Part shown: positions 8,459-52,074 of the stretch, piece after piece
How positions within the stretch are numbered: position 1 is the first letter of the stretch
Layout of the letters: each line of letters begins with the position of its first letter
Notes under the pieces: generated by a model
Told to the model about the DNA's origin: nothing
Database searches by the model: none
Seen by the model: only the letters and a program-made list of their open reading frames with translations
IMG/VR virus record: IMGVR_UViG_3300042892_002240
Span: 28,495 to 92,494 of that record
Direction: 5' to 3' (one strand)
DNA: 64,000 bases
Origin: a virus
Made by a program: the position numbers and the translations under genes

Positions 8459-8893
8459 TTATTTGGTTGAGGCCCGAAGTTGCCAGGACCATTTATTGTG
8501 GTTGTCAATGCGATCAGCAAGGAAATTCATAATTCCTTGTTCGTCTTTCTTTTGAGCCTCATCAAATGCTTTTTTAAGAGATTTAAGAAGGGCTTCATTT
8601 GCCGTCAACAGGGACTTGGCCATTGCTTTTGGATTAGGTTGTACATCTTTAAAATCAAGGGTGCGAAGATCTAAGAACTTTTGCAGGCTAAATGGAGCGT
8701 AATCGTCAAGTTTACGAATGTTTTCTGCAATTAGGTCAATTGACCCATAGGCATCTTCGTAGATTTCTGAAAACAAAGCGTGATATTGGCTAAAATCAGA
8801 ACCTTCTACATTCCAATGGTATCCATGGGCCATAAAGTAAAAAGTGACTACATCTGAAACAAGCACTTTGAGAGCTTTAACAAGGGCTTCCAT
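8459..8893 (-). CDS. dps: Dps family ferritin-like DNA-protection protein
   Basis: AHGYHWNVEGSDFSQYHALFSEIYE...IDLIAENIR ferroxidase signature; HNKWSWQL C-terminus. Confidence 0.92.
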   Translation of the reverse strand: MEALVKALKVLVSDVVTFYFMAHGYHWNVEGSDFSQYHALFSEIYEDAYGSIDLIAENIRKLDDYAPFSLQKFLDLRTLDFKDVQPNPKAMAKSLLTANEALLKSLKKAFDEAQKKDEQGIMNFLADRIDNHNKWSWQLRASTK

Positions 8894-28466: not shown

Positions 28467-28979
28467 GTGGCTAGTCAGCAAGCTGCCAATCAACAAACAT
28501 TTACAAACTGGGGCAGCAGTTACGACCCCTACTCCAATGACGCTCAGACGGCAGCACTTGGACCAACCCCTACCTTTCGTAACCCTAAAGACGCTCGTTT
28601 AGCCGCCTGGGGCTCTTCCCCAGACACACAGTATCCAGATGGGTACCTTGGCACCTTATCGGCCAACAGGCGCCAGGATAAGGTTACAAACGCCATTCAA
28701 CGCAATAACGCTCGCCCATACACCAGAGGCGTCCACAAAGGTGAGCGTATTAACCCCGGTGACTACGTTTGGCCCGATGAATTCAACCCCATGACTGGCT
28801 TGTTACTGCAATCACAAGGTAAGAAGTTTGCTCCAACTGGGGCTGTAAACGCTCACCTTACTAACGGTGGTAAGGCTGGGCCTAAAGGCGTACCGGGAAG
28901 CTTGAATCGCCCCAAGCAAGAAGTAATCAACCTCCAGAGGCAGTCAATGCTCAAATCATTAGCTCCGTCCTGGAAGTGA
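28467..28979 (+). CDS. Hypothetical protein
   Basis: YPDGYLGT...YTRGVHKGERI..DYVWP segment looks like a conserved core. Confidence 0.65.
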   Translation: MASQQAANQQTFTNWGSSYDPYSNDAQTAALGPTPTFRNPKDARLAAWGSSPDTQYPDGYLGTLSANRRQDKVTNAIQRNNARPYTRGVHKGERINPGDYVWPDEFNPMTGLLLQSQGKKFAPTGAVNAHLTNGGKAGPKGVPGSLNRPKQEVINLQRQSMLKSLAPSWK

Positions 28980-38180: not shown

Positions 38181-38345
38181 ACTAATCTCCTTGGACGGCG
38201 CCACAATTGCGCAGACACATAGTCTAACCCAGGTTCGCCCCTTACCCCATAACAATCAGCACGGATGCATGTTTTGTGCTGTATGGGGCAGGGGGAGGAA
38301 AGATCCCGACAAGAAAGGGTAGATGTCAGGCCCTGGCTTCTTTCC

Positions 38346-38705
38346 TTACGTCCTTTGTTTGTAGTTTTCCGTCTTTCTACGGAGTTCAACTGGGTGGCCT
38401 AGTTTTGCTAGATGCCTAATTCTTTGATAAATGGTTTGGTGGCTACGCTCAAGCATGTTAGCAATGTTAACTGCACGCTCCCCGTTATTCCAGCTCGCAA
38501 TGAGTTTCTCATCTTCTTCCCTCGTCCAATGTCGTGACTGACGCTTTTGACTTCCGTAGATTGTAAACATAAATCGCTCAGGATCTACGTCATACGCATT
38601 GGCTATAAGAGTTAAACCAATCTTTGGATCAAGGTGTCCGTCAATCATCAACTTAAAGATTACCTTGAGATCAAGGGTTGCTACAGTTTCATATTCACAT
38701 TCCAT
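38346..38705 (-). CDS. Myb/SANT-like HTH protein
   Basis: WTREEDEKL...IANMLERSHQTIYQRIRHL. Confidence 0.7.
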   Translation of the reverse strand: MECEYETVATLDLKVIFKLMIDGHLDPKIGLTLIANAYDVDPERFMFTIYGSQKRQSRHWTREEDEKLIASWNNGERAVNIANMLERSHQTIYQRIRHLAKLGHPVELRRKTENYKQRT

Positions 38706-38716
38706 GGTTTCCTCTT

Positions 38717-39592
38717 TCACTTAACTCGTAGTTGCGAGTATGGGGTTTTGTTGGTGACTGACTCAGCTACATCAGCTGTAATCTTGCCTAAGCTAAACGC
38801 AGCATCAAACAACTGAGTCTTAACTGCTGGCTCAGTGATCTGTTTAAACACTGCAGGAGACACCAGCTTCTTCAATGTCTCAATGTCAAACGAGCGACGC
38901 TCTGCCTGAACTAAAGAGACGACTTTGCCGTCTACTTCTACCTTGTCAAGAGACTCACTAAGCATCGCCGTCTTAAGTTCTTCTTCAAGACCCTTAAGTA
39001 ACGTTGCCCATGAGTCTGCTTCTTTCTTTGCAGCTAAGTAACTTCTTACTGTGGTTTCCATATTGTTTGTCATGATGATAATTTACCTTCTCTCGCTAGT
39101 TGTAACAACTTTTCTAATGAACAATCAGGCCCAAGTACTACTACAACAACCTGATTTGGTTGCGGGCCACTAATTACTTTTGGTTCTACCGAACCAACTA
39201 ACTTAAGTTGCTTAGGAATAATGAACGTGCTACCAACACCCTCAATATCCACAAGCATCTTTCTCTGTTCCGGGTGTCCATCGGGCATAACGTCAGGGTC
39301 TACGACTTCAGCCATAAGCCCCTTGTATGGCCCGCTTGAAACCTCCACGGACATTCCTTTTCTTAAGGCTTTTGCGCCTACCATTTTGTTACCTTTCTGT
39401 GGGTCACACTACTGTTGGGAGTACGTTTAATGTAAAGAGGAACTCATCGAGCACCTCTAGAGCGTCGTGTGTCTCGTCGCTGTTGTCAAACCTTGCAGAG
39501 TCAAGCAAGTGCTCAAGAGCCTTGATTTCGTCACTGCTAAAGATGACCACAGTAATGGGTCCACTGTTTTCTGATGATTTGATAATTGTCAT
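38717..39592 (-). CDS. Three small genes (38717-39073; 39070-39384, KOW-motif protein; 39404-39592)
   Basis: KOW-like KGMSVEVSSGPYKGLMAEV in the middle gene; tight packing. Confidence 0.6.
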
Positions 39593-39609
39593 TGTTTTCC
39601 CTTTGTTTG

Positions 39610-41046
39610 TTATCGGTATGTGTTAATAAGACTGTCTTGTATTTCTTCTAGCAAGTATTCACCCTTGCCATCTACTATTTCCCCTGCAGAAAACGCTTTG
39701 CTTTCTAACAGGCCCCATAACCGCTCATCAATTGTCCATGAGCCATCAATACTGGCCAAGCAAACTTCTACTGTTACATCGTTTATCTGGCCAATTCTGT
39801 GGAGCCTATCTTCTACTTGTGTTAGATCACTGGGTGACCAAGGTAATTGTGTGATTAATACATGGTGGTTTCTGCCATCACCATGCAATGTCAACCCAAC
39901 ACCAACTGACTTGATCTGCCCAATCATTACTCGTGCTTCACCACTATTAAAAGCACGTATAGATTCTGCTTTCATGTTGTCATCCATGCGACCGTTGAAC
40001 TCAACTACACCGTACTTACTAAGTTCCTCACTCAGGCTTTCCATGACATCATGATGCTCAGCAACTATAAAGAGCCCATGGTCTTCTGGCAAGGTCTCTT
40101 TAAATAACTCTTTTGCACGTTCTACTACCCCCTTTACTTTGCACGCCCCTGCTAGCTTCCGCATAGTAGTGAGCTTTACTAACGCTTCATTACGCATTGC
40201 GCCACGCCACTCTTTACCAGCCCCTGCTAAGTACGCGACTAAATCCTCTTCAGCAAGTAAATAATCTTTGACGGGCTGACCTCTTCCTTCAATATGGACA
40301 CCAGCACGACCTTTGTTGGGCAGGTCTAGCACATCATCTCTTTTAAGCCGCAGCATAAACGATGAGATCATCGCTGCATTGAGCCCAAGAGAGTCAACGT
40401 TGGCACGCTTACCAAACTTATTGCGCTTACCATTACCATCTAGCTCCACCGGACAGTAGTAGTTCCAAAAGACACCCTTACCACCAATGGCTTTCCAAGC
40501 TTCGTCACCAAGTATTTCTATTTGAGCACCCATCTCCATGTTCCTACCATTGGGGGTAGGTGTACCAGACATAAGTATCTTGAATCCGCTTATTGTCTTA
40601 GATATCTTTATGACTGCTTGTGTACGCCTGGCAGAGATGTTCTTAACACGGTGAGACTCATCAACAACAAGAGTCTTGAACCTACCTAGCAACGACAATG
40701 GGTCATCTGCTAACTCAGGTGTCCAATTTGCTATTACTGAATCTCCAATGATGTACACATCGGCTAAGGGAAGATCTTTAGGATACGATCCCCTAAGAAC
40801 TTCCACAGTCAAGTGTGGGGCAAACTTCTCTAACTCTTTTACCCAAGTTAAACGCAAGGACGGTGGGACGACTACAAGGGCTGGGGATTCACCCAACTCT
40901 TTTGCTCTGCTAATAACTTCAATTGCACATGCTGTTTTGCCAAGGCCCATGTCAAGAGCTAAGTAAGCCTGCTTCTTGTCCATGACAAACTCAACGGCTG
41001 CTTCTTGGTGAAACATTAACGGAGTAGGTACCACCGCTTTCATCAC
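39610..41046 (-). CDS. SNF2-family helicase (second copy)
   Basis: DMGLGKT, VVDESH, MSGTP, GVGLTL and QVEDRLHRIGQ motifs. Confidence 0.9.
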   Translation of the reverse strand: MMKAVVPTPLMFHQEAAVEFVMDKKQAYLALDMGLGKTACAIEVISRAKELGESPALVVVPPSLRLTWVKELEKFAPHLTVEVLRGSYPKDLPLADVYIIGDSVIANWTPELADDPLSLLGRFKTLVVDESHRVKNISARRTQAVIKISKTISGFKILMSGTPTPNGRNMEMGAQIEILGDEAWKAIGGKGVFWNYYCPVELDGNGKRNKFGKRANVDSLGLNAAMISSFMLRLKRDDVLDLPNKGRAGVHIEGRGQPVKDYLLAEEDLVAYLAGAGKEWRGAMRNEALVKLTTMRKLAGACKVKGVVERAKELFKETLPEDHGLFIVAEHHDVMESLSEELSKYGVVEFNGRMDDNMKAESIRAFNSGEARVMIGQIKSVGVGLTLHGDGRNHHVLITQLPWSPSDLTQVEDRLHRIGQINDVTVEVCLASIDGSWTIDERLWGLLESKAFSAGEIVDGKGEYLLEEIQDSLINTYR

Positions 41047-41153
41047 TCTAACTCCTCCTCGTCGCCGTAGTAATCTTTTTCTTCTCGGTATCTATCGTCT
41101 GCCCGTTGTTCAGCGTCGCAACCGCAACATGGTCTGTCTTCGCATTGGCACAT
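41043..41153 (-). CDS. 36-aa Cys-rich microprotein
   Basis: Read manually: MCQCEDRPCCGCDAEQRADDRYREEKDYYGDEEELE; aaggag RBS; overlaps the SNF2 start. Confidence 0.65.
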   Translation of the reverse strand: MCQCEDRPCCGCDAEQRADDRYREEKDYYGDEEELE

Positions 41154-41167
41154 CTTTTTCTCCTTAA

Positions 41168-41413
41168 TTAGTTGTTGATGAACTCATCAGGAACTTGCAC
41201 TGTAGTAGTCCAACCACGATTGGATCGCCATTGCATGTACATGATGTTTTTAATTGCAGTGAATAGTGCGACAAGGAACATTGCTATACCTACACCCAAA
41301 TACACTTTGTTTGATTCAATTACTAACAACCGCCCAATTGTTATCACCATTAGAAAACTAATAACAACTTGTTTGATAACTGCTCGCTTAGGCGAAACCA
41401 CTAAATTTCCCAC
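41168..41413 (-). CDS. Small membrane protein
   Basis: Two hydrophobic segments. Confidence 0.5.
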   Translation of the reverse strand: MGNLVVSPKRAVIKQVVISFLMVITIGRLLVIESNKVYLGVGIAMFLVALFTAIKNIMYMQWRSNRGWTTTVQVPDEFINN

Positions 41414-42087
41414 AACTCTACCTCGTTTCTTTTTACAAACTCGTAAGCTTTATTAAAAGCGTTAGTACTTAATTCTTGCGTTGCTTGCTCATGGCAATTG
41501 CATCCATCGTGTTCGTTGTCTGCTTCAGAACAATCTTCTTCGTACTTGAGGTCATCATACCCATAAGTTTCATAAAACACCAATATGCCTCCAATCCAAA
41601 CGTGCGCACCACCAAACCCCATACCCCACTCTTCATAACTATTAATGAAGTGCAGTCGTGGAAACTTAGATGATACGTACGACCAGAAGTTGTTTTCAAA
41701 TGGCCCCCATGCGGTTTCGTAGTTAAACGATAATGTTTTAGATGTTTCTCCTAATTCATGCCGTTCAAAACACCTTGTCTCACAATCACCCCATTTGGTA
41801 CCCCACTCGGCATTTGCCCATTCATAACTGTTCTTGTGTCCAGTTATTTTTAGGCACAACTCTTGATGCTCTTTTATTAGCTGATCTTTTTCAAAAGCCA
41901 ACTCAAGAGTAAAGGGATGCTTGTTGTACTTCTTAAGCTTTACAGGGTCCCTTGTAAGTACCGCTGGCATCTTTTTTAAGTTTGTCAAACTTGTTGTGCC
42001 ATCTTTGTTTGTGACTTTTAAAAGAAGCTTTTCGAGCTGCTTCTGGTTACCTCTTATGACTGTTGTGTTGTTACACCAGTTGGGCAT
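41401..42087 (-). CDS. DUF1281/YubB-like ferredoxin-fold protein
   Basis: MPNWCNN start; WANAEWGTKWG; FNYETAWGP. Confidence 0.8.
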   Translation of the reverse strand: MPNWCNNTTVIRGNQKQLEKLLLKVTNKDGTTSLTNLKKMPAVLTRDPVKLKKYNKHPFTLELAFEKDQLIKEHQELCLKITGHKNSYEWANAEWGTKWGDCETRCFERHELGETSKTLSFNYETAWGPFENNFWSYVSSKFPRLHFINSYEEWGMGFGGAHVWIGGILVFYETYGYDDLKYEEDCSEADNEHDGCNCHEQATQELSTNAFNKAYEFVKRNEVELWEI

Positions 42088-42132
42088 GTTTCTCCTTTGT
42101 TATTGGACCTGACCACGATTGAGCCATGGCGT

Positions 42133-44637
42133 TTACCATCTTTCTCTGTACTCAAAGTCCTCGGGTGGTTCAGGCGGTTCGTTAAGCATTCTCCAATAAG
42201 AATCAACGCAGCTGTCATAGTGGCTACTATCACGCCAATCGCCTTCGTCTAGACCGGGGTTCTCTTTTAAGAACTCGTCTAACCCCTCCCAGTAAGAGTC
42301 TGTGTCGTTGTATAACTCACAGGCATTTTCAAAATCATCTGCTGCTTTGCACATGTCTTGAAATGGTTGTTCAAGCCATGCGTCGTAGTTAGTACCCATT
42401 GATGTATATACTCCATTCCTCGTCTGTCATGTTGTCACGATTACGTTCTGAACAACCCCAACACTCACCAGTATCTGCATCATGATCTATACGACTAGAG
42501 GCAACATACTTTTGCCCACAATCGCACATACCTAATTCAGTATCGTCGTAGTTAGCGCCCATTACTCACTCTCACAGTCGTGTCCGTATAGCCATTCGGC
42601 ATGGTCAATTTCATTAGTGTGATCAAAGATCCGATCACATTCAGCACATTTGTCAACAAGCAGATGACCCCACCCGTCACAGTGAGTGCATTCAACGTAG
42701 TCTGTTACTCCATTCCACGTGCCACCATGGCCCTTACAGTCAGGGCACATCTTTTTAGTTGTAGCAATAGGGCTACCCATTCTTTTTCCTCGCTTTTGCA
42801 CTCAGGGTCATTCCAACCCATGCCCAAATTCTCCATTCTTCTTGGGGCAACAAACCACCATTCTCTTTGCCACCCCATTGCTCTAATGCTTCAAGCACAC
42901 CACAGTCACTACAGATTTCTGTCTTGTCATCTGTGCGGCTAATGGCACCCGGGTACTGCCCACGCTCGGAAGCGTTGGGCACAGCACCTAGGCACCTTGG
43001 GCAGGTATGGTCAGGGAACTTTTCACTCATGCTTTTACTCCTAATTCGTTGATTGCGTTGACGTACGCGATAGCAGACAACTCTTCTAATTGCTTGGTTG
43101 CTGCTTCAATGATTTGCTTTAGGGTATCAACAAGGTTGGGGCCATCGCAGTGTTCCTTGAAGAATACATTTACCGTGTGATCTCCTGCATTTAATTGCAA
43201 TGTTCTAAACGGCACAGCAGAAAGAACGGGGTCTGTAAAGTCCCCAAACTCCATGCTCACTCTGCTATCACCACGTAGGTGAACGCTTGTTGATGTTCTT
43301 GTGTAGTCGTAACTCATTTTGTTTCCTTTGCTGTTTTTATTAGGTCTGATGCAAGCTCTTGCAATTCTTCAATTTTTTGCATAACGTTTTCAACTGCTTC
43401 GTTGATGGCATCTGCTAACGCCCCAACGCCAGTCTCATTCATAATTTGTAACTCTTCATCTCTTGGGTGCAGAGCCACGGTTAATTTACCGTCGTCATTC
43501 TGAATATGCAAATACATAACGATGCGCTGGCGCTTGGGATGTTGTGAAGGACGAATGTCATTAACATTGTCAGGGTCGTCAACGGGTGCACCCCAACCTC
43601 TAATGGCCAGTACTGCTCCATGAGCAACGCCATATGTTGCTACTGCGTCCATTAAGTCGTATGGGTTGTCAGCTTCAGCAACAACACACGGCTCATTGTC
43701 TTTCCATACGCCTAGATCCCATACGGTTGCTGGGGCGTTGTCCCAACCCTCGTATTCTTTAAAGTACATTTCATCAAAGGCGATGAAGTCTTGCTCATTC
43801 ATGGTGGTTCTCCTTATTGTTGGTTTATTGGACTGCGGCACTATTAAAGATGTTGCTGTACTAACTAAATGGGTCAGCCCATTTTCTTTGTTCTTGCTCT
43901 GACAGTGATGCATCCATCACATTCTCATAATCAACATAATAAGTTGATATGAGTTTGTCAATGCGATCAAGCCTTTTGCGTAAGTTTCGGTTGCGTAACA
44001 ACCTCCACCAAGGTGTTTCAATTAGGACTGTTTCTACTAATGAAGCTTCAATGCGAGCCTCATAGAGTTTTTGCGCTAAGAACTTATTGTTCAACATGTT
44101 CCTCCGGTGAATCTATTCCGCACTTGGGACAGTACGAGTCATACTCATGGTCACATGGATCGTCGTAAGGTGCTGGTAACTTAGGCATCTGTGCCAACAA
44201 CTTACTGACTACTCCACGAATATCCAACAAGACATCAGCAACTTCTGATACAGGGGTCATGCTATGGCCTGCATTGTTTTCTAATGACTTATCAACCATT
44301 GCCATTACTTCTAAACAAACAGCGATAGTGGCAATTGTTTCAAACGATTGAAATTTTGTTATGGTGTCGCTCATTATTTCATAGCTCCATAGAACACACC
44401 GGCGTAGCCAAGCAGAAACTCCGAGACAAGATAATCAATCTCAATTGTTGATCTACTTTCGCTGTAGTCTGTCATGTCTTCTACAAACACCATGTAAAGC
44501 AAGATGATGTCTGAGATATCTTTTCGTGGATTTTCATTGCTTTTATCCACTCCGTATGGCACGTCTCGCTCTCCAAGCTTTACACCTCTTTCAAAAGCTT
44601 TCTCTGCTAGCGTTTCCAATGTGGGGTCTGGTCTCAT
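42133..44637 (-). CDS. Cluster of about ten small acidic or Cys-containing hypothetical genes
   Basis: Head-to-tail ORFs with RBSs, e.g. 42133-42399, 42773-43030, 43027-43317, 43314-43802, 43861-44097, 44084-44374 and 44374-44637. Confidence 0.6.
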
Positions 44638-44779
44638 AGGTCATCCTCTGTTTCTTTGTCATTGGTTTCGTCATCAAACGGCAACACTGTTTCAGGTCGT
44701 GGAAGTTCTATATAACCTCCAAAGATATCCCTGACGTAGGTGCCGTTGGATAGGTAACTGTATGTTGGTTCTTCTGTTG

Positions 44780-45163
44780 TCATTCTGCCTCCGTAGTTAC
44801 TAGGTCATGCTTGTGGTCTAACCACATTTTGAATGGTGGGTAAAGGCCAGCAATACGCTCTAATGCTTTCTCAGGTACTGAATGGCTATCCCCATCGTAG
44901 ACGCCATTGGCATCAAGCGCCCCAACGATTACACAAGTACCTACAAGCACTTGTCCAAACAATGCTGTGGCAATTGGGTTGATGTCAAGCCCTAATAGCA
45001 AGCCCTCGTCATGTACATAACCAACGATCTCTAAGTCGCTGTTATGCACACAGTCAAACCAACCTCCGACTGCATTGTTGAGGTACTCACCGATACCACT
45101 TTCTTTGGTATGCAGGTTGACCCCTACCACATTGTCTGTACCAATTTGAATGACCTTGATCAT
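44780..45163 (-). CDS. DUF3846-like protein
   Basis: LNNAVGGWFDCV...YVHDEGLLLGLDINPIA...LVGTCVIVG. Confidence 0.75.
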   Translation of the reverse strand: MIKVIQIGTDNVVGVNLHTKESGIGEYLNNAVGGWFDCVHNSDLEIVGYVHDEGLLLGLDINPIATALFGQVLVGTCVIVGALDANGVYDGDSHSVPEKALERIAGLYPPFKMWLDHKHDLVTTEAE

Positions 45164-46139
45164 TTGTTTTCCTCCTTGATTAATAGGTGAGATTGGACGG
45201 AGACCAGGGCTCGGATGAGCGCCGTCTTTTGTTCTTCAGTTAAAGGTTTAGCCATGGTGTCATTCCACTCTGCTTCACACAAATCAGGGCCGTAGTACTC
45301 TTCGTAACGGCCCAACAATGTGCAACGCTCACACTCAGAGATAACTGATTCCTCAGGTTCCGGTGCTTCATTGGCAATGCTCCAAAGCATTCTTTCCTCA
45401 GCTGTTTTGTTTTGAGACAATCGATATTGATAGTCTTTCTCAATATCTGACTCCACACAAGAACATGGGGTGGAACCAATGAACCACCTCATGTCTTTCA
45501 CTAATGAACGCAACACTTTCTTTTTGCTGTTGTTGAACATGCTTCCTCCTATTTGTTTTTCTCTGATAAAGACAGTAAGGCTGCTTCTCTGGCAAGTGCT
45601 TCAGCTTGCTGCATTAACTCTTGCGCTTCTCTAGCCAAGTTCATGCTCTTGCGCATCAAATCACCTACAGCACCACAGCCACCATGATCTATAGACCACT
45701 TGAGGCTAAGGGATGCTAACGCAATTGGCAACTCTCCTTGATAACGACTTTCATCGTCATCATCAGAAATAATTTCTACTTTGTTAGTAGCAAGATCCCA
45801 ACATCCAAACTCAATGGTGTTATGGTCACTTACAACTGCAAGCATGATGATTTGAGATACAACTTCACCTGTATCGGGGTCACGCTTACGGGCGGGCACA
45901 AAGAAGCCAAAGCTTTCTTTTGGAAGCCTGTCAGTTTCGTGACACAAGTTTGCTATAAATGCGTATGAGTCACCCTCATACTCTTCTTTCTCCATTGACG
46001 AGATCTCTGGAAGAAACTCGTCATCTAGAGATAAAGGAACAACACTGGCCCAAAGATCATCAAACGGATCGTTGACTTTGTTGCCAATGTTGTTACTGAA
46101 GTGTTTCCACAAATCGTGGATTGATTTATTAGTAGCCAT
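45160..46139 (-). CDS. Two hypothetical genes (45160-45540, 45549-46139)
   Basis: ORFs with RBSs. Confidence 0.6.
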
Positions 46140-46188
46140 AGCCTCTTCCTTGTGTTAATTGGACCGCATCACGATTGTGATGTGGGTA

Positions 46189-47619
46189 TTAGTACTCCAA
46201 CCCGCGAGTAAGCTTTACGGGCAACTTGTCACCACGGGCAACTTTCTTGAGAGCCTCAACAGTCTCTGCGACGTCGTATGTCATGTGAATGCCATGTTTA
46301 CGAACAATGCTGATGCACTGCTTGGTCAATTCTGTGCGCTGCTGGTCACTCTGACCGTCAGTCACATAACCATCGCATAGCCAGATGAATGGCTCACTCT
46401 TCCTGCGCATTGATAGTGCAAACGCCAGTGCAGGTCCATCTACACCATTGCCACCGTTACCTCTGCGTACATTCTTGACAACCTTGCCACGATCAGCAAG
46501 CACCCAGATGTTGGGCTCATCAGTAGTTGAACCAGTTGAATGGCTGTAACCAATAACTACACACCCAGGCGAAGCCTTGATGATTTGCCACAGGTCATCA
46601 GTATCCAACTGCATTGAACCGGATTGGTCAATCAAGATGACGCCACCAACGCCCCGAATGGTCTTGTCAAACACTCGCTGATCAGGATCAGTGAGCATAC
46701 GACTGATGCGTCGTGGAGCTTTACCAATGTCAGTAGCTACACGACGACGACCGAGACGACCAGCGACCCGTTCAGTCAAAGGGATCTTGTCAATGATAGG
46801 GACTGCAAACCCTGTATCACCACCGATACTAACTTCCTCACCGTGTATGCCATCACTAGCTTTACGCTCGGCTTTGGACCTGGTAACCATGCGTGACAAG
46901 TCACGAGCTAACGGTAGTGTGAATGCCCGATAACCCTTAGGCACAGACGCATACTCAGTTGAAGTCTCACCATCGTCATCCTCTTTGCTAGACACTGCAA
47001 TTGAGTACGGCTCAGTGCTGGCAATACGGCTGGCATGCAGACGATTCCATGAACGCTCGTGTCTCGCACAAACTTTCTTGACATCCTTGGCAAACTGGTA
47101 CATATTTGCGTCAGCACCAGCGTCAACTGCTTTCTTGATACCTCGCATAAACGCAGTGCATGCTTTAGTACCGTAGGTCGCAGAGACCATACGCATGATG
47201 CCCATGAGGTCCTGACCATTGGTAAGAATCTCACCTGAAGTCTGCTCACTGCCATCTTTGAGCATGTCCGTGTCAAAGCCAAGACGCTTTGCCAAGTAAT
47301 TGACACGCAACTCCTCAGCTGACTCAACAAGCTCGGGGTGGATAGTGTCTGCCCAGTCAAGCGGAATAGCAGGCCCAATCTCAGGAGAGACCTTGGCATG
47401 CAATGCTTCATGAGCACGGATCACACGTGACAACTGGTCAGTACCCATTGGAACTTTCATGCGCCGATTCTTGATGTCAGTGAATGCATCACCACGCTGT
47501 GCTGATGCAGACGTGACATTCCACGGAGTATCGTTAGACAGGTCATCTCTGTCTAGCCACTCAGGGAACACACTGACAAGCTTTGGCTTTGGCTTTGGCT
47601 TATCTGTTTTATTGCTCAT
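46189..47619 (-). CDS. vWA-domain protein with an N-terminal HExxH (CobT-like partner of the AAA ATPase)
   Basis: RAHEALH; ILIDQSGSM MIDAS motif; IWLCDG. Confidence 0.8.
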   Translation of the reverse strand: MSNKTDKPKPKPKLVSVFPEWLDRDDLSNDTPWNVTSASAQRGDAFTDIKNRRMKVPMGTDQLSRVIRAHEALHAKVSPEIGPAIPLDWADTIHPELVESAEELRVNYLAKRLGFDTDMLKDGSEQTSGEILTNGQDLMGIMRMVSATYGTKACTAFMRGIKKAVDAGADANMYQFAKDVKKVCARHERSWNRLHASRIASTEPYSIAVSSKEDDDGETSTEYASVPKGYRAFTLPLARDLSRMVTRSKAERKASDGIHGEEVSIGGDTGFAVPIIDKIPLTERVAGRLGRRRVATDIGKAPRRISRMLTDPDQRVFDKTIRGVGGVILIDQSGSMQLDTDDLWQIIKASPGCVVIGYSHSTGSTTDEPNIWVLADRGKVVKNVRRGNGGNGVDGPALAFALSMRRKSEPFIWLCDGYVTDGQSDQQRTELTKQCISIVRKHGIHMTYDVAETVEALKKVARGDKLPVKLTRGLEY

Positions 47620-47691
47620 ATCCCTCCTCAGGGTGTAGTGGGCAGGACGGCGGCACAATTGAATGCGCCACCGTCCCACCCGATTGGTTAC

Positions 47692-48414
47692 TTAGGCATT
47701 AACGCTGTTGACTTTGATGGAGTCAATAATCCCCATCCACATGTCGTTGAATACGAGCTGTGCTGCACGCTCGTCACCCAACACCTTGCGCACTTGATCG
47801 AAAGCCTTCCAAGTACGCAAAGAGATGCGGCGGTCATTGTCAAGGTCACACGACAATGCCGCAGCCGAACGAATGTCCTCTGACAAGAATGTCAAAGCGT
47901 CCGGGTGGGGGCAATTGATGCGCACGACAAGTGGGAAACGATCCTTGAGGGCAGTCGGGAGTTCCCGCATGTCCTCAATGTTGGTCGTCATAACTGCTGA
48001 GAAGCCGGCATTGGGCTTGACTGTACGGTCATTCTCGGGGTGCAAGAATGATGCAGACTCAGGGCTGTCAAGCATGCTGAGCATGAGTGACAACACGTCG
48101 CCAGATGCACGGTCAATTTCGTCAATGATGACGCGACCGCCGACAGAGCCATTGCCTTCCCAAGCACGAAGTACTGCGCCGTCGTGCCATTTCCATGTGC
48201 CACCACCGGTGGGCATGAAGTGACCAGTGATGTCACTACTGGTCATGTCTTCATTACAGATCAAGCGATGTGCTCCACCTGCAATGTTGCCCATGGTGAG
48301 GCCTGCAAACGTTTTGCCAGTTCCTGGCGGCCCGTGCAGAATGATGCGGTCAACGCCAGCCGTAAGCAAGTCTGATACGTCTGCCCAGCACTGGGGTAGG
48401 TTTGATGTGGTCAT
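47692..48414 (-). CDS. MoxR/CbbQ/CobS-type AAA+ ATPase
   Basis: GPPGTGKT, WHDG, IIDEIDRA, MTTN and ALKDRF motifs. Confidence 0.9.
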   Translation of the reverse strand: MTTSNLPQCWADVSDLLTAGVDRIILHGPPGTGKTFAGLTMGNIAGGAHRLICNEDMTSSDITGHFMPTGGGTWKWHDGAVLRAWEGNGSVGGRVIIDEIDRASGDVLSLMLSMLDSPESASFLHPENDRTVKPNAGFSAVMTTNIEDMRELPTALKDRFPLVVRINCPHPDALTFLSEDIRSAAALSCDLDNDRRISLRTWKAFDQVRKVLGDERAAQLVFNDMWMGIIDSIKVNSVNA

Positions 48415-48538
48415 GTTTTCCTCTTCCTGTTTGTTTTGTGCGTTAAAGATGCGCACCCCCTTTTATTAGATGGCATTACAAACTAGACAGCCGCCCGATT
48501 GAACGAGCGGCTGTCCTACTTACCTTGACTTGTTAAGG

Positions 48539-49887
48539 TCAGGCGATGTATTGGCTAACACTCTTATAAGTGCTAGCGTTTACAAACTCTTCCTCACTGA
48601 TGTTAAGAATCGCAATCGCGTTCTCAATCTCTTGGATCTCCCGTGTGCTGATGTTCCTAGGGAAGTCTGGCATTTCAGGGCGCTTGAACTTTTTTGCGTC
48701 CAACTGGAAGCTTATTGAAACACTTCGGGTATGCCCATACATGTAATTACTTATGTCCACGTGGGATACCTTGAGCTTTCCTGAAACAATTGCTTCAAGT
48801 ATTGTTGCTTCAAAGGCCTTAAGTGCATCTTTGTGTGCTTCTCCAGCTTTTTCGTACGCTGCCTTGGCATCCAGACGCTGCTTCAATGCTTTCTGAAGTG
48901 CCTTGATTAAGGCAACACGCTTGACTTTGATGTTCATTGGTTTTCCTCTTCCTTGTGAGCTGTTGTAGGTCGCTCTTCACCTAATAATTCTCCCCTGAAC
49001 AGGAAGAAAAGAAAGAAAGCCACACCAAAAAAGATGAGGCCGACCTCAAAAAGGTCATTGAGTAACTCAATCATTGAGCAACCTCCGTTTGTCCCTGGCT
49101 GGTGGGTTGGCTTTACGCTCAGCCTTACACCAGCACTTTCCACCACATCCATTATCTGAGTGGTCTTTCCATCCCTGTGACTGTGACCAGCCCCAGGAAT
49201 TCTTATTTCGTATTGTTCTGCTCATGTCCCCTCCTTATGGGGTGTTGGACGGCGGCACGATTACATCGCACCGCCGTCCGTTGTTAGTTACTTTGAAGTT
49301 CTTCAGGAAACTCACTGAAGCCGGTAAACCAGCCCCAGAGTTCGGGTAGAACTTTGGCGCACTCTTCCAAGGAGTTATACCCCTTGCAATGCGCCTCCCC
49401 TGCAAGCATGGGAGTGTCGTCACTGGGCAGGTAACCGTTTTCTTGGCGGTACATCTCCCTGATGTCTTCGGGTGCATTGCTGCCCGTGAACATTCGTGGC
49501 TTGACAGCCATGAACATCCATTTTGCACTATCCCGATCCCACATGATTTGAACCGCCGGAGGTGGCAGTTCAAACCCCTCGGGAAGCCCGTTGAATCCGT
49601 CACCGTCAGACATTACGTGCCTGACGCTGACGGCGAGCCTTGAGACGAAGATGCGCAGCAAGGCTCTGCGAATCTACATTAGGCACAACTGCCTTGGCTC
49701 TACGCACTACATCACGGTTGATGATGCGGTGCAACGTGTCGTCTTCCGGAGTCAAACCCCATGTAGGGGCCCACTTCCAGAAGTTCTGGTTTGACTGGAT
49801 GTCAGTCTCGTCACCGAGACTTTCAGCCACTAACTTACCAAGCAAGGAATCCATTATAGATTCTCCCTCTCTGTTTACTATATCCAC
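48539..49887 (-). CDS. Five small hypothetical genes (48539-48937; 48934-49074, membrane; 49067-49225; 49284-about 49613; 49606-49887)
   Basis: Overlapping stop/start pairs and RBSs; 49067-49225 (MSRTIRNKNSWGW...) read manually. Confidence 0.55.
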
Positions 49888-49898
49888 ACGGTGTGGAG

Positions 49899-49971
<73 letters not shown>

Positions 49972-49976
49972 TGGGG

Positions 49977-50511
49977 CTAGAACCCGTCTGTCATAGACAG
50001 CATTTCTAGAATCGGGCTCGCTACTAAAAAGTCACAGATGTTTTTATGCCCCTCTATGACTAACACTGGTTCTCCATTTTTGAGAACCTTGTATTCGGTA
50101 TATTGCACGTCAAACTCATTGACGTGCCAATTAAAAGTGAGATGTATGTCCCACTCTCCTTGTGGGTGGCGTGCTACAAGAGCACGCTTCACCTCACTCA
50201 TCACGGTGCACCACGTGGTTGATAAAACTCTCAACCATGCGCTGCTGCGCAAGTGTCAATTTGCGACAGTCAAACACACCGGGTTGCCCCAGCATGTCTG
50301 TCTCAATGTCCGACCAATAATCTTTCTCATTGGAAGTTATGAGAATATGGTTTGAGTACGCCATAGCGCCACACTCAAACCATTCGTCAACCATGGCGTG
50401 TGCCATTTGTTTGGCACCCGCTTGGTCCTGTATGTCATACGTGACGCCTGATTCGGCAGACGTCAATTCGTTTTCATAACGAATTTCTAACGTAATCAAT
50501 GGTCTTTCCAT
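49977..50511 (-). CDS. Two hypothetical genes (49977-about 50201, 50194-50511)
   Basis: ORF track; RBS before 50511. Confidence 0.55.
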
Positions 50512-50588
50512 TATTACCCCTCCTTGGGTTGTTCCTCTCATTGAGGCTTTTTGGACGCCAGCACGATTTTTGGTCGTGCTTGTCCTAG

Positions 50589-50708
50589 TGGGGCTGAGGG
50601 GAATCGAACCCCTGAGACACTTTCGTGATCCTGTCTTCTGGCTTTTAGTTAATTAATAACAAGCCGCGACTCGGTAATTGAAATTGTTGTGCTCTACCGT
50701 ACAACCCC
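50589..50708 (-). ncRNA. Expanded tRNA-like RNA (element B, 120 nt)
   Basis: Acceptor GGGGTTG/CAGCCCC-A; T-arm AGGGG-TTCGATT-CCCCT; non-canonical D-, anticodon- and variable-position arms. Confidence 0.7.
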
Positions 50709-51000
50709 CAGTGGCATACTGATAAGCCATTTGCCTTGTGCATGCCAGACAAGGACATAGTACGCAGGTTGCTTATCAATCCTGACCCGTCACTATCGGC
50801 ACGGTGCAGCCGTTTGGCAATGGTGCAAGTATTTCGAGACCCATGCATGAACGTATCCATGCACTTCGTGCTATTGCCAAACTTTCCCTCAGGCTACTGC
50901 TGTCACAGTAGATGGCATATCTGACAGGATATAACATCAATCCACGCTTGCCCGTACATTATCCGGGATTCGCATACACTAAGTGTTACCTGAGGTACTC
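50709..51000 (-). ncRNA. Candidate highly structured, pseudoknotted ncRNA
   Basis: At least 9 stems and 4 loop-mediated complementarities visible by eye; no convincing ORF. Confidence 0.65.
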
Positions 51001-51002
51001 GG

Positions 51003-51098
51003 TGGAGGGAAGAGGAATCGAACCTCTTAGGAGAGTGCGTCCGGACGTCTTTTGCGCCCCGCGATGACTCTGGCCTGTGCAACCAGCATTCTCCCCCC
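51003..51098 (-). ncRNA. tRNA-Ala/tmRNA-TLD-like RNA (element A, 96 nt)
   Basis: Acceptor GGGGGGA/TCCCTCC-A with G3:U70 and A73; T-arm AGAGG-TTCGATT-CCTCT; long irregular stalk in place of an anticodon arm. Confidence 0.72.
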
Positions 51099-51134
51099 TG
51101 GGGGTGGCCTTTTTACATCGGCCAGGATGTTCCG

Positions 51135-51350
51135 TCAGTCAAACGGACTGAACTGCGACGACGTATCGTCACAGCGAAACGCAAGGTCTGCTGCGTACAG
51201 TTTGTCTAAATCGACGCTTTGACGAGCTGCCTTGATGACACCCTTTCGGGTCTCACGCAGCAATTGCCGCTCAAACTTACGAGCCAAGCGTTGTTCCCGC
51301 TTGTATTCACGAACCTGGCGGTACGTCGTTGCAACCGACATTGTTTCCAT
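51135..51350 (-). CDS. Basic hypothetical protein
   Basis: 71 aa; aaggaagaggt RBS. Confidence 0.65.
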   Translation of the reverse strand: METMSVATTYRQVREYKREQRLARKFERQLLRETRKGVIKAARQSVDLDKLYAADLAFRCDDTSSQFSPFD

Positions 51351-51509
51351 TATTTACCTCTTCCTTTTAAACTCCCACTCGGTGTGGAAGATCAATTTGG
51401 ACGGCGACACGGGCGCCGAGGCGCCCAGTCAAGCCAGTCCGAGAATGGGCACCTGTAGCGCCAAAGGGGGATATGTCGCTTTATGGGGCAGGTGCTACTC
51501 CCAATCAGA

Positions 51510-51837
51510 CCTCATATGCTGATTAGATGGTGCGAACCAAGTGATTTATTTGTGGAACTTCCCCAAGAATGGGGAGTCCGATGGTGTTAAATGCAACTGA
51601 CCTTTGTGCTGATACGCACAGGCCAGAATGACTGACACCGCAGCCACTTTTTGAGGGTCAAGCTCTGGCCAGCCCTCTGCTTTTGACAGGCCATTGCGAT
51701 TTTTGATTGCCTTTATGATGAAGGCTTGTTCCCTAGCTGAGAACAAACCCTCAATCTTTTTCCTCTTTTTGAACATGCTGTACTCATTTCTGCCCGCAGG
51801 CAATAGGAGGTTCGCACCAACTAATCAACATATGAGG
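51510..51837. repeat. 29-bp inverted repeat (51510-51538 / 51809-51837) enclosing a small ORF
   Basis: cctcatatgctgattagatggtgcgaacc versus ggttcgcaccaactaatcaacatatgagg; 27/29 complementary. Confidence 0.9.
51546..51776 (-). CDS. Hypothetical 76-aa basic protein inside the inverted repeat
   Basis: MFKKRKKIEGLFSAREQAFIIKAIK...; no clear RBS. Confidence 0.45.
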   Translation of the reverse strand: MFKKRKKIEGLFSAREQAFIIKAIKNRNGLSKAEGWPELDPQKVAAVSVILACAYQHKGQLHLTPSDSPFLGKFHK

Positions 51838-52074
51838 CCATAAGACCTATGGGAATATGGACGGTGCCTCAGTTGCCCGAGGCACCGTCCTCCCGTTTTG
51901 ATTAGATGGAGGAGGTGACAACGCCCAAGCCCTCTATTAGCCAGAGGTAATCTCTTGGGAGGGCAAGGACGCCATCTCCACAATGGCTCACTATCAGGAA
52001 CACTCCAGTGATGCCCACCATAGATTGTCCCTCTATAACTGCTTACCTTGCTATGTCGTCCCCACGAGTACCTC

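Follow-up and report, generated by a model that had tools for sequence, protein, structure and literature searches.

A structured-RNA family of lake phages in a tRNA-punctuated arrangement

Comparative sequence analysis of a locus in an uncultured lake phage indicates that the core of a minus-strand non-coding block, here termed D2-D3, is a genuine conserved, modular and pseudoknotted structured-RNA family, absent from Rfam 15 and from GenBank phages. The modules of the block exist, are conserved as structures and abut tRNA-type ends. The data point to a new structured-RNA family in a tRNA-punctuated arrangement, for which the mechanism suggested in an earlier note on this DNA, namely that the phage uses tRNA mimics as processing signals to excise a discrete structured RNA, is plausible.

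The window analysed here is a 64-kb stretch, the last 64 kb of the 92.5-kb IMG/VR virus record IMGVR_UViG_3300042892_002240 (positions 28,495 to 92,494), a record with 100% completeness by CheckV; the stretch is present in 23 lake DNA sequencing runs (DNA runs from 23 lake-water studies). The RNA block (51098-50589, minus strand) sits within a run of small leftward genes, with a 71-codon ORF upstream (51350-51135, minus strand) and a 115-codon ORF downstream (50541-50194, minus strand). A genuine tRNA-Arg(tct) gene, recognized by both ARAGORN and Rfam (49971-49898, minus strand), does not encode its CCA, and the tRNA-Arg(cct) genes of the related contigs L033, L013 and L152 are likewise without encoded CCA. 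On the minus strand, the block consists of element A (51098-51003), a middle segment of ~294 ORF-free paired bases and element B (50708-50589), which bears out the earlier description of the middle as ORF-poor and densely paired. No credible ORF is conserved across the block between the window and its relatives, and a promoter/terminator scan of the minus strand found none inside or beside it. The plus strand has a hairpin resembling a terminator, T run included, at 51087-51106, which overlaps the 5' acceptor strand of A and the C run upstream; no plus-strand gene ends at this hairpin.

A and B proved to be tRNA-shaped on the minus strand at the positions that the earlier note had given for them, and both keep the acceptor and T-arm module recognized by RNase P and tRNA 3'-end enzymes. 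In the 96-nt element A, a 7-bp acceptor stem (51098-51092 paired with 51010-51004) with discriminator A51003 is combined with a 5-bp T stem bearing a canonical T loop and with a 5-bp hairpin whose 7-nt loop has A in place of U at position 33. The 120-nt element B is a five-arm cloverleaf, composed of a 7-bp acceptor (50708-50702 paired with 50596-50590; discriminator A50589), a D-like arm with a large loop, a long bulged central arm, a GNRA-capped extra arm and a canonical T arm (5-bp stem, canonical loop). The central arm of B has no anticodon loop, its tip being a 5-nt loop on a 4-bp AU-rich apical helix. Thus, the 7-bp acceptor, the 5-bp T stem and a UUCRANY-type T loop are found in both elements, and a 7-nt anticodon loop with U33 is missing from both. 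Neither was detected as a canonical tRNA by ARAGORN or by Rfam RF00005 at cut-off, which called only the tRNA-Arg(tct) at 49898-49971, and they surfaced in ARAGORN only at thresholds of 80-90%, with contrived introns. Judged by these features, A and B are tRNA-derived or tRNA-mimicking elements that are no longer able to decode. Within the 64 kb, there are just two exact copies of the 11-nt T-loop word GGTTCGATTCC, one in A and one in B, on the same strand and 414 nt apart, while by our estimate ~0.03 exact matches are expected by chance and, with up to one mismatch, the mean in shuffled sequences was 0.66. An attP or integration remnant was rejected as an explanation for the pair: A and B share a 29-nt 3' similarity (76%), yet each has its own matching 5' acceptor strand.

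Homologues were sought by several routes. GenBank phages gave no match to the RNA block or to the D2-D3 family. The neighbouring AAA ATPase gene led to 33 related viral loci, three of which (L002, L033 and L013) carry parts of the block, and further D2 copies were obtained by pattern scans of IMG/VR (L254/L299, L291, L307 and L334). Searches with the pattern of the 3' end of A, with the neighbouring 115-aa protein and with a loose D2 pattern returned chance or coding matches only; a loose A-core pattern in metagenomes gave one true match (L152) among 120, and all four matches to the D2 pattern in bacterial genomes were coding.

A-type elements, found in L002, L033, L013 and L152 besides the window, share a conserved 29-nt core that forms the 5-bp hairpin and the 7-nt loop without U33, and this core is kept across phages whose ATPases are only ~58% identical. 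Their acceptor and T stems are kept via double changes (G-C to A-U; A-U to U-A), and in the copies of L033, L013 and L152 a U replaces A58 in the T loop. Between the window and L002, the identity of A is 98.9%. B is known from the window and L002 only; each substitution between these two copies is either unpaired (in a loop or bulge) or pair-keeping (C-G to U-G, A-U to G-C, G-C to G-U), including one double change (A-U to G-C), and a 7-nt deletion falls within a loop. Because of the double changes in the A-type stems and the loop-only or pair-keeping changes in B, both elements are considered to be structures under selection.

Several other readings of the two elements were tried and rejected. 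At lowered thresholds, ARAGORN reads A as a tRNA-Met(cat) with a 16-nt intron, but the anticodon stem of this model is not kept in L033; for B, only an odd ARAGORN intron model at lowered thresholds was obtained. A 20-codon ATG frame lies over A behind a purine run in the window and L002, but has no start in L033 and L013, and another frame over A has 8 versus 28 codons. An alanine identity was also discarded, as the G3-U70 pair of A occurs only in the window, being A-U in L002 and G-C in L033 and L013.

In the metagenome contig L152, the A-type element occurs alone as a stand-alone cassette; copies of an 11-nt palindrome flank it, and also flank the tRNA-Arg of this contig. This palindrome, CTAATGATTAG, and its one-base variants bracket single cassettes (tRNA-Arg, A-type element, small ORFs) in the relatives (L152 84-1395; L033 8262-8648 and 9081; L013 1133-1583) and are absent from the window; in L291, a different palindrome, TTTAATTTCAAATTAAA, brackets cassettes in like manner. 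The 7-nt loop of the A-type elements (window 51055-51049, minus strand; L033 ~8580-8586; L013 ~1515-1521) takes the forms CAAAAGA, CAAAGGA and CAUAAGA, in which two positions vary and AAG is constant among these three sequence types only. AAG is a lysine codon, and the loop could therefore pair with the tRNA-Lys anticodon.

The D2-D3 RNA is found in eight lake-virus contigs, all from lake viromes, in at least three gene contexts. D2 (50813-50881, minus strand) is the conserved core hairpin, with homologues in L033, L013, L254, L291, L307 and L334. Its outer helix P1 (50881-50873 / 50821-50813) closes an internal loop bearing an invariant 9-nt word on the 5' strand, above which lies the apical hairpin P3. 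D3 (50709-50812, minus strand) is an optional pseudoknotted domain that also occurs in L002, L033 and L334 and, reduced to its core, in L254. It is built of P4 (50804-50801 / 50790-50787), P5 (50784-50781 / 50768-50765), a long-range helix (50778-50771 / 50727-50720), P6 (50754-50749 / 50739-50734) and a pseudoknot, in which the P6 loop (50747-50740) pairs with 50719-50712. The P6 loop region holds a self-complementary word in every member (GCAUGC, GCAUAUGC, AUGCAU or CACGUG; window 50754-50734, L254 ~1143-1165, L334 ~9217-9197, L033 ~8476-8496), which would allow two RNA copies to pair with each other as an alternative to the internal pseudoknot.

The closest relative, L002, is a near-identical phage (ATPase 97% identical) in which A, D2, D3 and B follow in the order of the window with D1, the part of the middle segment next to A, missing; the discriminator of A is followed by one C and then by the start of D2. 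In ~173 nt of D2-D3, the two phages differ by two substitutions and one indel. The aligned blocks and genes around A and D2-D3 are 81-96% identical and broken by unalignable stretches, so that A and D2-D3 are more conserved than the flanking aligned genes. In L033 and L013, whose ATPases are ~58% identical to that of the window, a genuine tRNA-Arg(CCT) is joined spacer-free to D2 (discriminator A, C, D2 start). D2 is followed by D3 in L033 and by an unrelated structured module in the place of D3 in L013, after which both contigs continue with a short hairpin, a C-rich tail and an A-type element. Thus, in every member of the phage group of the window (window, L002, L033 and L013), the RNA follows directly, with no spacer, on a tRNA-type 3' end, which is that of A in the window and L002 and that of the genuine tRNA-Arg(CCT) in L033 and L013, and downstream it runs without exception into G1 of a tRNA-like element (B or A-type). 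As a correction to the earlier note, three bases (CUG) lie between the D3 pseudoknot strand and G1 of B.

The remaining members, L254, L307, L334 and L291, belong to different phages with different neighbouring genes and have no tRNA or tRNA-like flank; here, the family RNA is preceded by a stop codon and followed by the ribosome-binding site of the adjoining ORF. The shortest member, L307, comprises only D2, a hairpin termed P7 whose 8-nt loop is conserved, and a C-rich tail, whereas the RNA of L334 is complete (D2, D3, P7 and tail). L254 has D2, a trimmed D3 and the tail, without P7, and L291 has an insertion partly matching the module of L013. Because half of the family is without flanks and the A-type element also occurs alone, the flanks are dispensable and do not define the family. 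The second structured module, partly common to L013 (1290-1483) and L291 (7800-7600, minus strand), replaces or supplements D3, and in L291 the P7 hairpin is present twice, flanking the insert.

The copy in the window has the P1 helix, the 9-nt word and the P3 hairpin that define the D2 family, and scores 180.8 bits with model R1. A G run in the 3' strand of D2, P7 with its CUGAGYAU loop and the C-rich tail are shared by L033, L013, L291, L307 and L334; L254 has the first and the last of these features, and the window and L002 have none of them. This joint absence shows the window copy to be a derived form, which could be degenerate, and hints that the G run and the C-rich tail may pair with each other.

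The pseudoknotted RNA recognized earlier from one sequence is upheld by covariation among its homologues, its helices holding across all eight contigs. In the D2-D3 alignment, 93.8% of the cells are paired compared to 80.2% in shuffles, and double changes occur at 16 of the 31 pairs, scores that were reached by none of 500 shuffles; as the alignment was fitted to the structure, these figures lean toward it, and an independent hand table agrees with them. When the partner strands were slid as a control, pairing fell to 31-42%. Moreover, a covariance model on the D2-D3 helices recovered all eight members and nothing else in 0.56 Mb. Pair 6 of P1 takes three forms (C-G, G-C and U-A); P3 is different in every lineage and covaries throughout; P5 shows an A-U to U-A switch; in the long-range helix of D3, two pairs have changed on both sides and one has been deleted from both strands; nearly every pair of P6 has changed; and in P7, CGUC/GACG alternates with CAAC/GUUG. 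Between the P6 loop and the segment that follows the long-range helix, the window, L254 and L334 retain their pairing, with one double change; in L033, it is reduced to three pairs. Furthermore, 16 of the cells hold G-U pairs, which would turn into A-C mismatches if the plus strand were transcribed, indicating that the RNA is read from the minus strand. Comparison of folding energy with shuffled controls gave a mixed picture: B is well below its controls (z -3.6), A less so (z -1.5), and the middle segment is modest and not strand-specific (z -2.3 on the minus strand, -2.7 on the plus strand). Folding energy alone being modest, the case rests on the comparative data.

D1 (50882-51001, minus strand), a multi-hairpin domain with a closing helix at 50995-50989 / 50893-50887, is lineage-specific, being absent from the same junction in L002, L033 and L013. 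Since L002 lacks exactly 51001-50882 at this junction, D1 is a 120-nt insertion. The ~290-nt RNA of the earlier note is therefore a real segment, but it is a composite of three modules rather than one unit. D1 is single-copy in the genome and matches nothing in any retrieved locus, and a repeated mobile element was accordingly rejected. In a metatranscriptome run (X24), one 263-nt contig, with a depth of 2 and possibly from DNA carry-over, corresponds to 51058-50804 at ~95% identity; it covers the 3' half of A, D1 and D2, runs across the A/D1 junction and carries no strand or end information. All ten listed differences of this contig from the window lie in D1. In the hairpin 50938-50928 / 50921-50911, U50936-A50913 is changed to C-G and U50933-G50916 to U-A; G50963 and A50955 have become a C-G pair that lengthens the hairpin 50967-50964 / 50954-50951; and one A-U pair of D1 is lost. 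This variant supports a folded D1 and favours the predicted minimum-energy hairpin 50938-50928 / 50921-50911 over the GGAT/ATCC stem of the earlier note, which is invariant in X24. The loop of this hairpin and that of the next one are perfectly complementary 6-mers, also invariant in X24. No RNA-library contig matched the flanking ORFs, where the relatives diverge.

On these data, we propose that the cassette is a non-coding RNA made as a minus-strand transcript of four separately evolving modules (A, D1, D2-D3 and B), in which A and B, with their minihelix of 7 + 5 bp, canonical T loop and discriminator A, would direct cutting. An acceptor/T-arm minihelix is a sufficient substrate for bacterial RNase P, and CCA-less tRNA genes require endonucleolytic 3' trimming. 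Host RNase P would thus cut on the 5' side of G1 in each element (51098 in A, 50708 in B), and the tRNA 3'-end pathway would trim past the discriminators 51003 and 50589, as with the CCA-less tRNA-Arg of the phage. The transcript would be resolved into three stable RNAs, namely A (~96 nt), D1-D3 (~294 nt) and B (~120 nt), the tRNA-type flanks being the route of this lineage to defined, nuclease-resistant RNA ends. A Y RNA with a 7-bp acceptor-like stem is cleaved by M1 RNA (PMC4201824). The exact T-loop word present twice, the conserved junctions and the sparing of the B helices count in favour of this processing model; the X24 contig bridging the A/D1 junction, the four flank-free members and the lack of a promoter or terminator in the scan count against it. 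As for the claim that the mimics are processing signals, the abutment on both sides in the window group agrees with it, while the flank-free L254, L307, L334 and L291 and the lone A-type element of L152 do not. We consider that release of A, D1-D3 and B by A/B-directed cutting, with co-transcription and cleavage sites inferred, has about an even chance of being correct. The released D2-D3 would act in trans: the 9-nt word in the internal loop of D2 is invariant while the helices covary freely, a contrast suggestive of a specific partner, whether protein or RNA.

The main rival to this processing model, though unlikely in our estimation, is one long structured RNA that is not processed at all. 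It would be either a 3' untranslated region attached to the 71-codon gene upstream (51350-51135) or a leader belonging to the 115-codon gene downstream (50541-50194), and its tRNA-shaped ends would do no more than cap it against exonucleases or act as a cis-regulatory fold. Consistent with an uncut RNA, the family member stops only a few bases short of the next ribosome-binding site in L254, L307 and L334, the RNA-library contig is unbroken over the A/D1 junction, and no internal promoter or terminator was found. However, the downstream genes vary by context, and what comes after the RNA in the window group is a further RNA element rather than an ORF. Moreover, RNase P can hardly be expected to spare an intact minihelix of 7 + 5 bp that bears a canonical T loop.

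It is also possible, though we think it quite unlikely, that A and B are the functional parts, as non-decoding mimics interacting with host factors that bind tRNA, and that the D modules are unrelated passengers. The mimics might, for instance, decoy tRNA-cleaving defence nucleases, or the A-rich loop of A might pair with the tRNA-Lys anticodon. The conservation of an A-type element on its own in L152, the 29-nt core shared despite ~58% ATPase identity, the selection on the B helices and the constancy of AAG in the loop of A where two other positions vary would fit such a role. Nevertheless, the A-type elements amount to five sequences in two lineages only and B to those of the window and L002, and this reading offers no account of why D2 is invariably joined to tRNA-type ends in four contigs. 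A combination of this reading with the processing model, which we regard as improbable, would be a tRNA-punctuated phage ncRNA operon, in which the mimics direct RNase P/RNase Z and also act on host tRNA biology (e.g. as a tRNA-nuclease decoy or by the AAG loop of A on the tRNA-Lys anticodon) and the RNA self-associates via the P6-loop palindrome.

We hold it to be decidedly improbable that the block is debris, made up of decayed phage tRNA genes and selfish hairpin-rich insertions that shuffle between cassettes without any function for the phage. Debris would account for the strong mosaicism of the region, the recent insertion of D1, the exchange of modules among relatives (such as the L013 module for D3) and the absence of P7 and tail from the window copy. 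Against it stand the compensatory changes present in all modules, a conservation of A and D2-D3 that exceeds that of the genes around them, and an architecture that stays the same in unrelated phage backgrounds.

A divergent member of a known tRNA-like class, whether a mini or two-piece tmRNA or a YrlA-type Y RNA, is largely refuted and hardly credible, although the ends of B align to the acceptor and T arm at both ends of the tmRNA model RF00023 (E 1e-9), A has G3-U70 with A73 in the window, and the 5'-strand word of D2 resembles the Y RNA motif GNCGAA (PMC4201824). The tmRNA score of B is 28.8 bits, below the cut-off of 47, with only the two ends aligned and an interior of 80 nt instead of the 328 expected (~330 nt in tmRNA). 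ARAGORN (-m) found no tmRNA even at the 80% threshold; B has G3-C70, and the G3-U70 pair of A is not conserved; B has no tag frame, resume codon or pseudoknots, and no frame is conserved between the window and L002. As to Y RNA, the D2 word has C for the first G of GNCGAA(N)G and, in two members, GAU for GAA; the YrlA model of Rfam gave no match at E up to 10, and no Ro60/TROVE gene was matched in the 92.5-kb genome. GOLLD and ROOL were likewise rejected, with no Rfam match and a conserved core of ~70-200 nt compared to their ~500-800 nt. In agreement with the novelty supposed earlier, the Rfam 15 scans, by gathering threshold and by E-value, matched none of the D2-D3 family members (window and seven relatives) and returned no family for A, D1 and the A-type copies, the only signals being the sub-threshold tmRNA ends.

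A 1675-nt contig of another organism in a DNA run (X23) shares 33 nt (3 mismatches) with the T arm and acceptor strand of B (window 50583-50615) and then continues as an apparent tRNA-Ala(CGC), a similarity that may hint at the ancestry of B or at the host.

Phage ncRNAs are far less charted than phage proteins, and this locus adds to them a covarying family absent from Rfam 15 and from sequenced cultured phages, which is assembled block-wise from optional domains and swapped modules in a mosaic small-gene region of lake phages. Signals for end formation that resemble tRNAs are known from mitochondria, MALAT1 and a herpesvirus. In MALAT1/mascRNA and in the tRNA-miRNA units of murine gammaherpesvirus 68, a non-decoding tRNA shape recruits RNase P/tRNase Z and sets the end of a neighbouring ncRNA. 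Different from these eukaryotic nuclear systems, the lake phage has a bacterial host and elements on both sides of the RNA, and cleavage is predicted from sequence. If the flanks are cut by RNase P/RNase Z, they would be the bacterial-virus counterpart of such signals and would give a concrete role to non-decoding tRNA-shaped phage RNAs.

The closest phage precedent is provided by RNAC and RNAD of phage T4, small stable RNAs from the tRNA gene region whose role is not known (PMC3014915). They are likewise phage-encoded small ncRNAs among tRNA genes, made together with the tRNAs (PMC3014915), but have no relation in sequence or structure to the lake-phage RNA, which is modular and pseudoknotted, is flanked by non-decoding mimics (with one real tRNA-Arg in relatives) and occurs in other phages away from any tRNA. 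YrlA Y RNAs have a T arm and an acceptor-like stem, some being cut by RNase P and receiving CCA, and a long terminal stem with a conserved 5'-strand word (PMC4201824). The stem of D2 also has a conserved 5'-strand word, whereas the tRNA-like parts of the lake-phage locus lie outside this stem and not inside.

The 3' boundary of the RNA block, ahead of the ribosome-binding site of the next ORF, is marked by a hairpin with one copy of an 18-nt motif (50551-50586, minus strand), directly after B. This motif, TTGGACGGCGGCACGATT, and its variants occur in a single orientation just upstream of leftward genes, often in a hairpin, with copies within 38191-51874 of the window at 38191, 43828, 46159, 47643, 49245, 50551 and 51857 (plus-strand coordinates), and could serve as a promoter specific to the phage, as a processing site or as a signal in translation.
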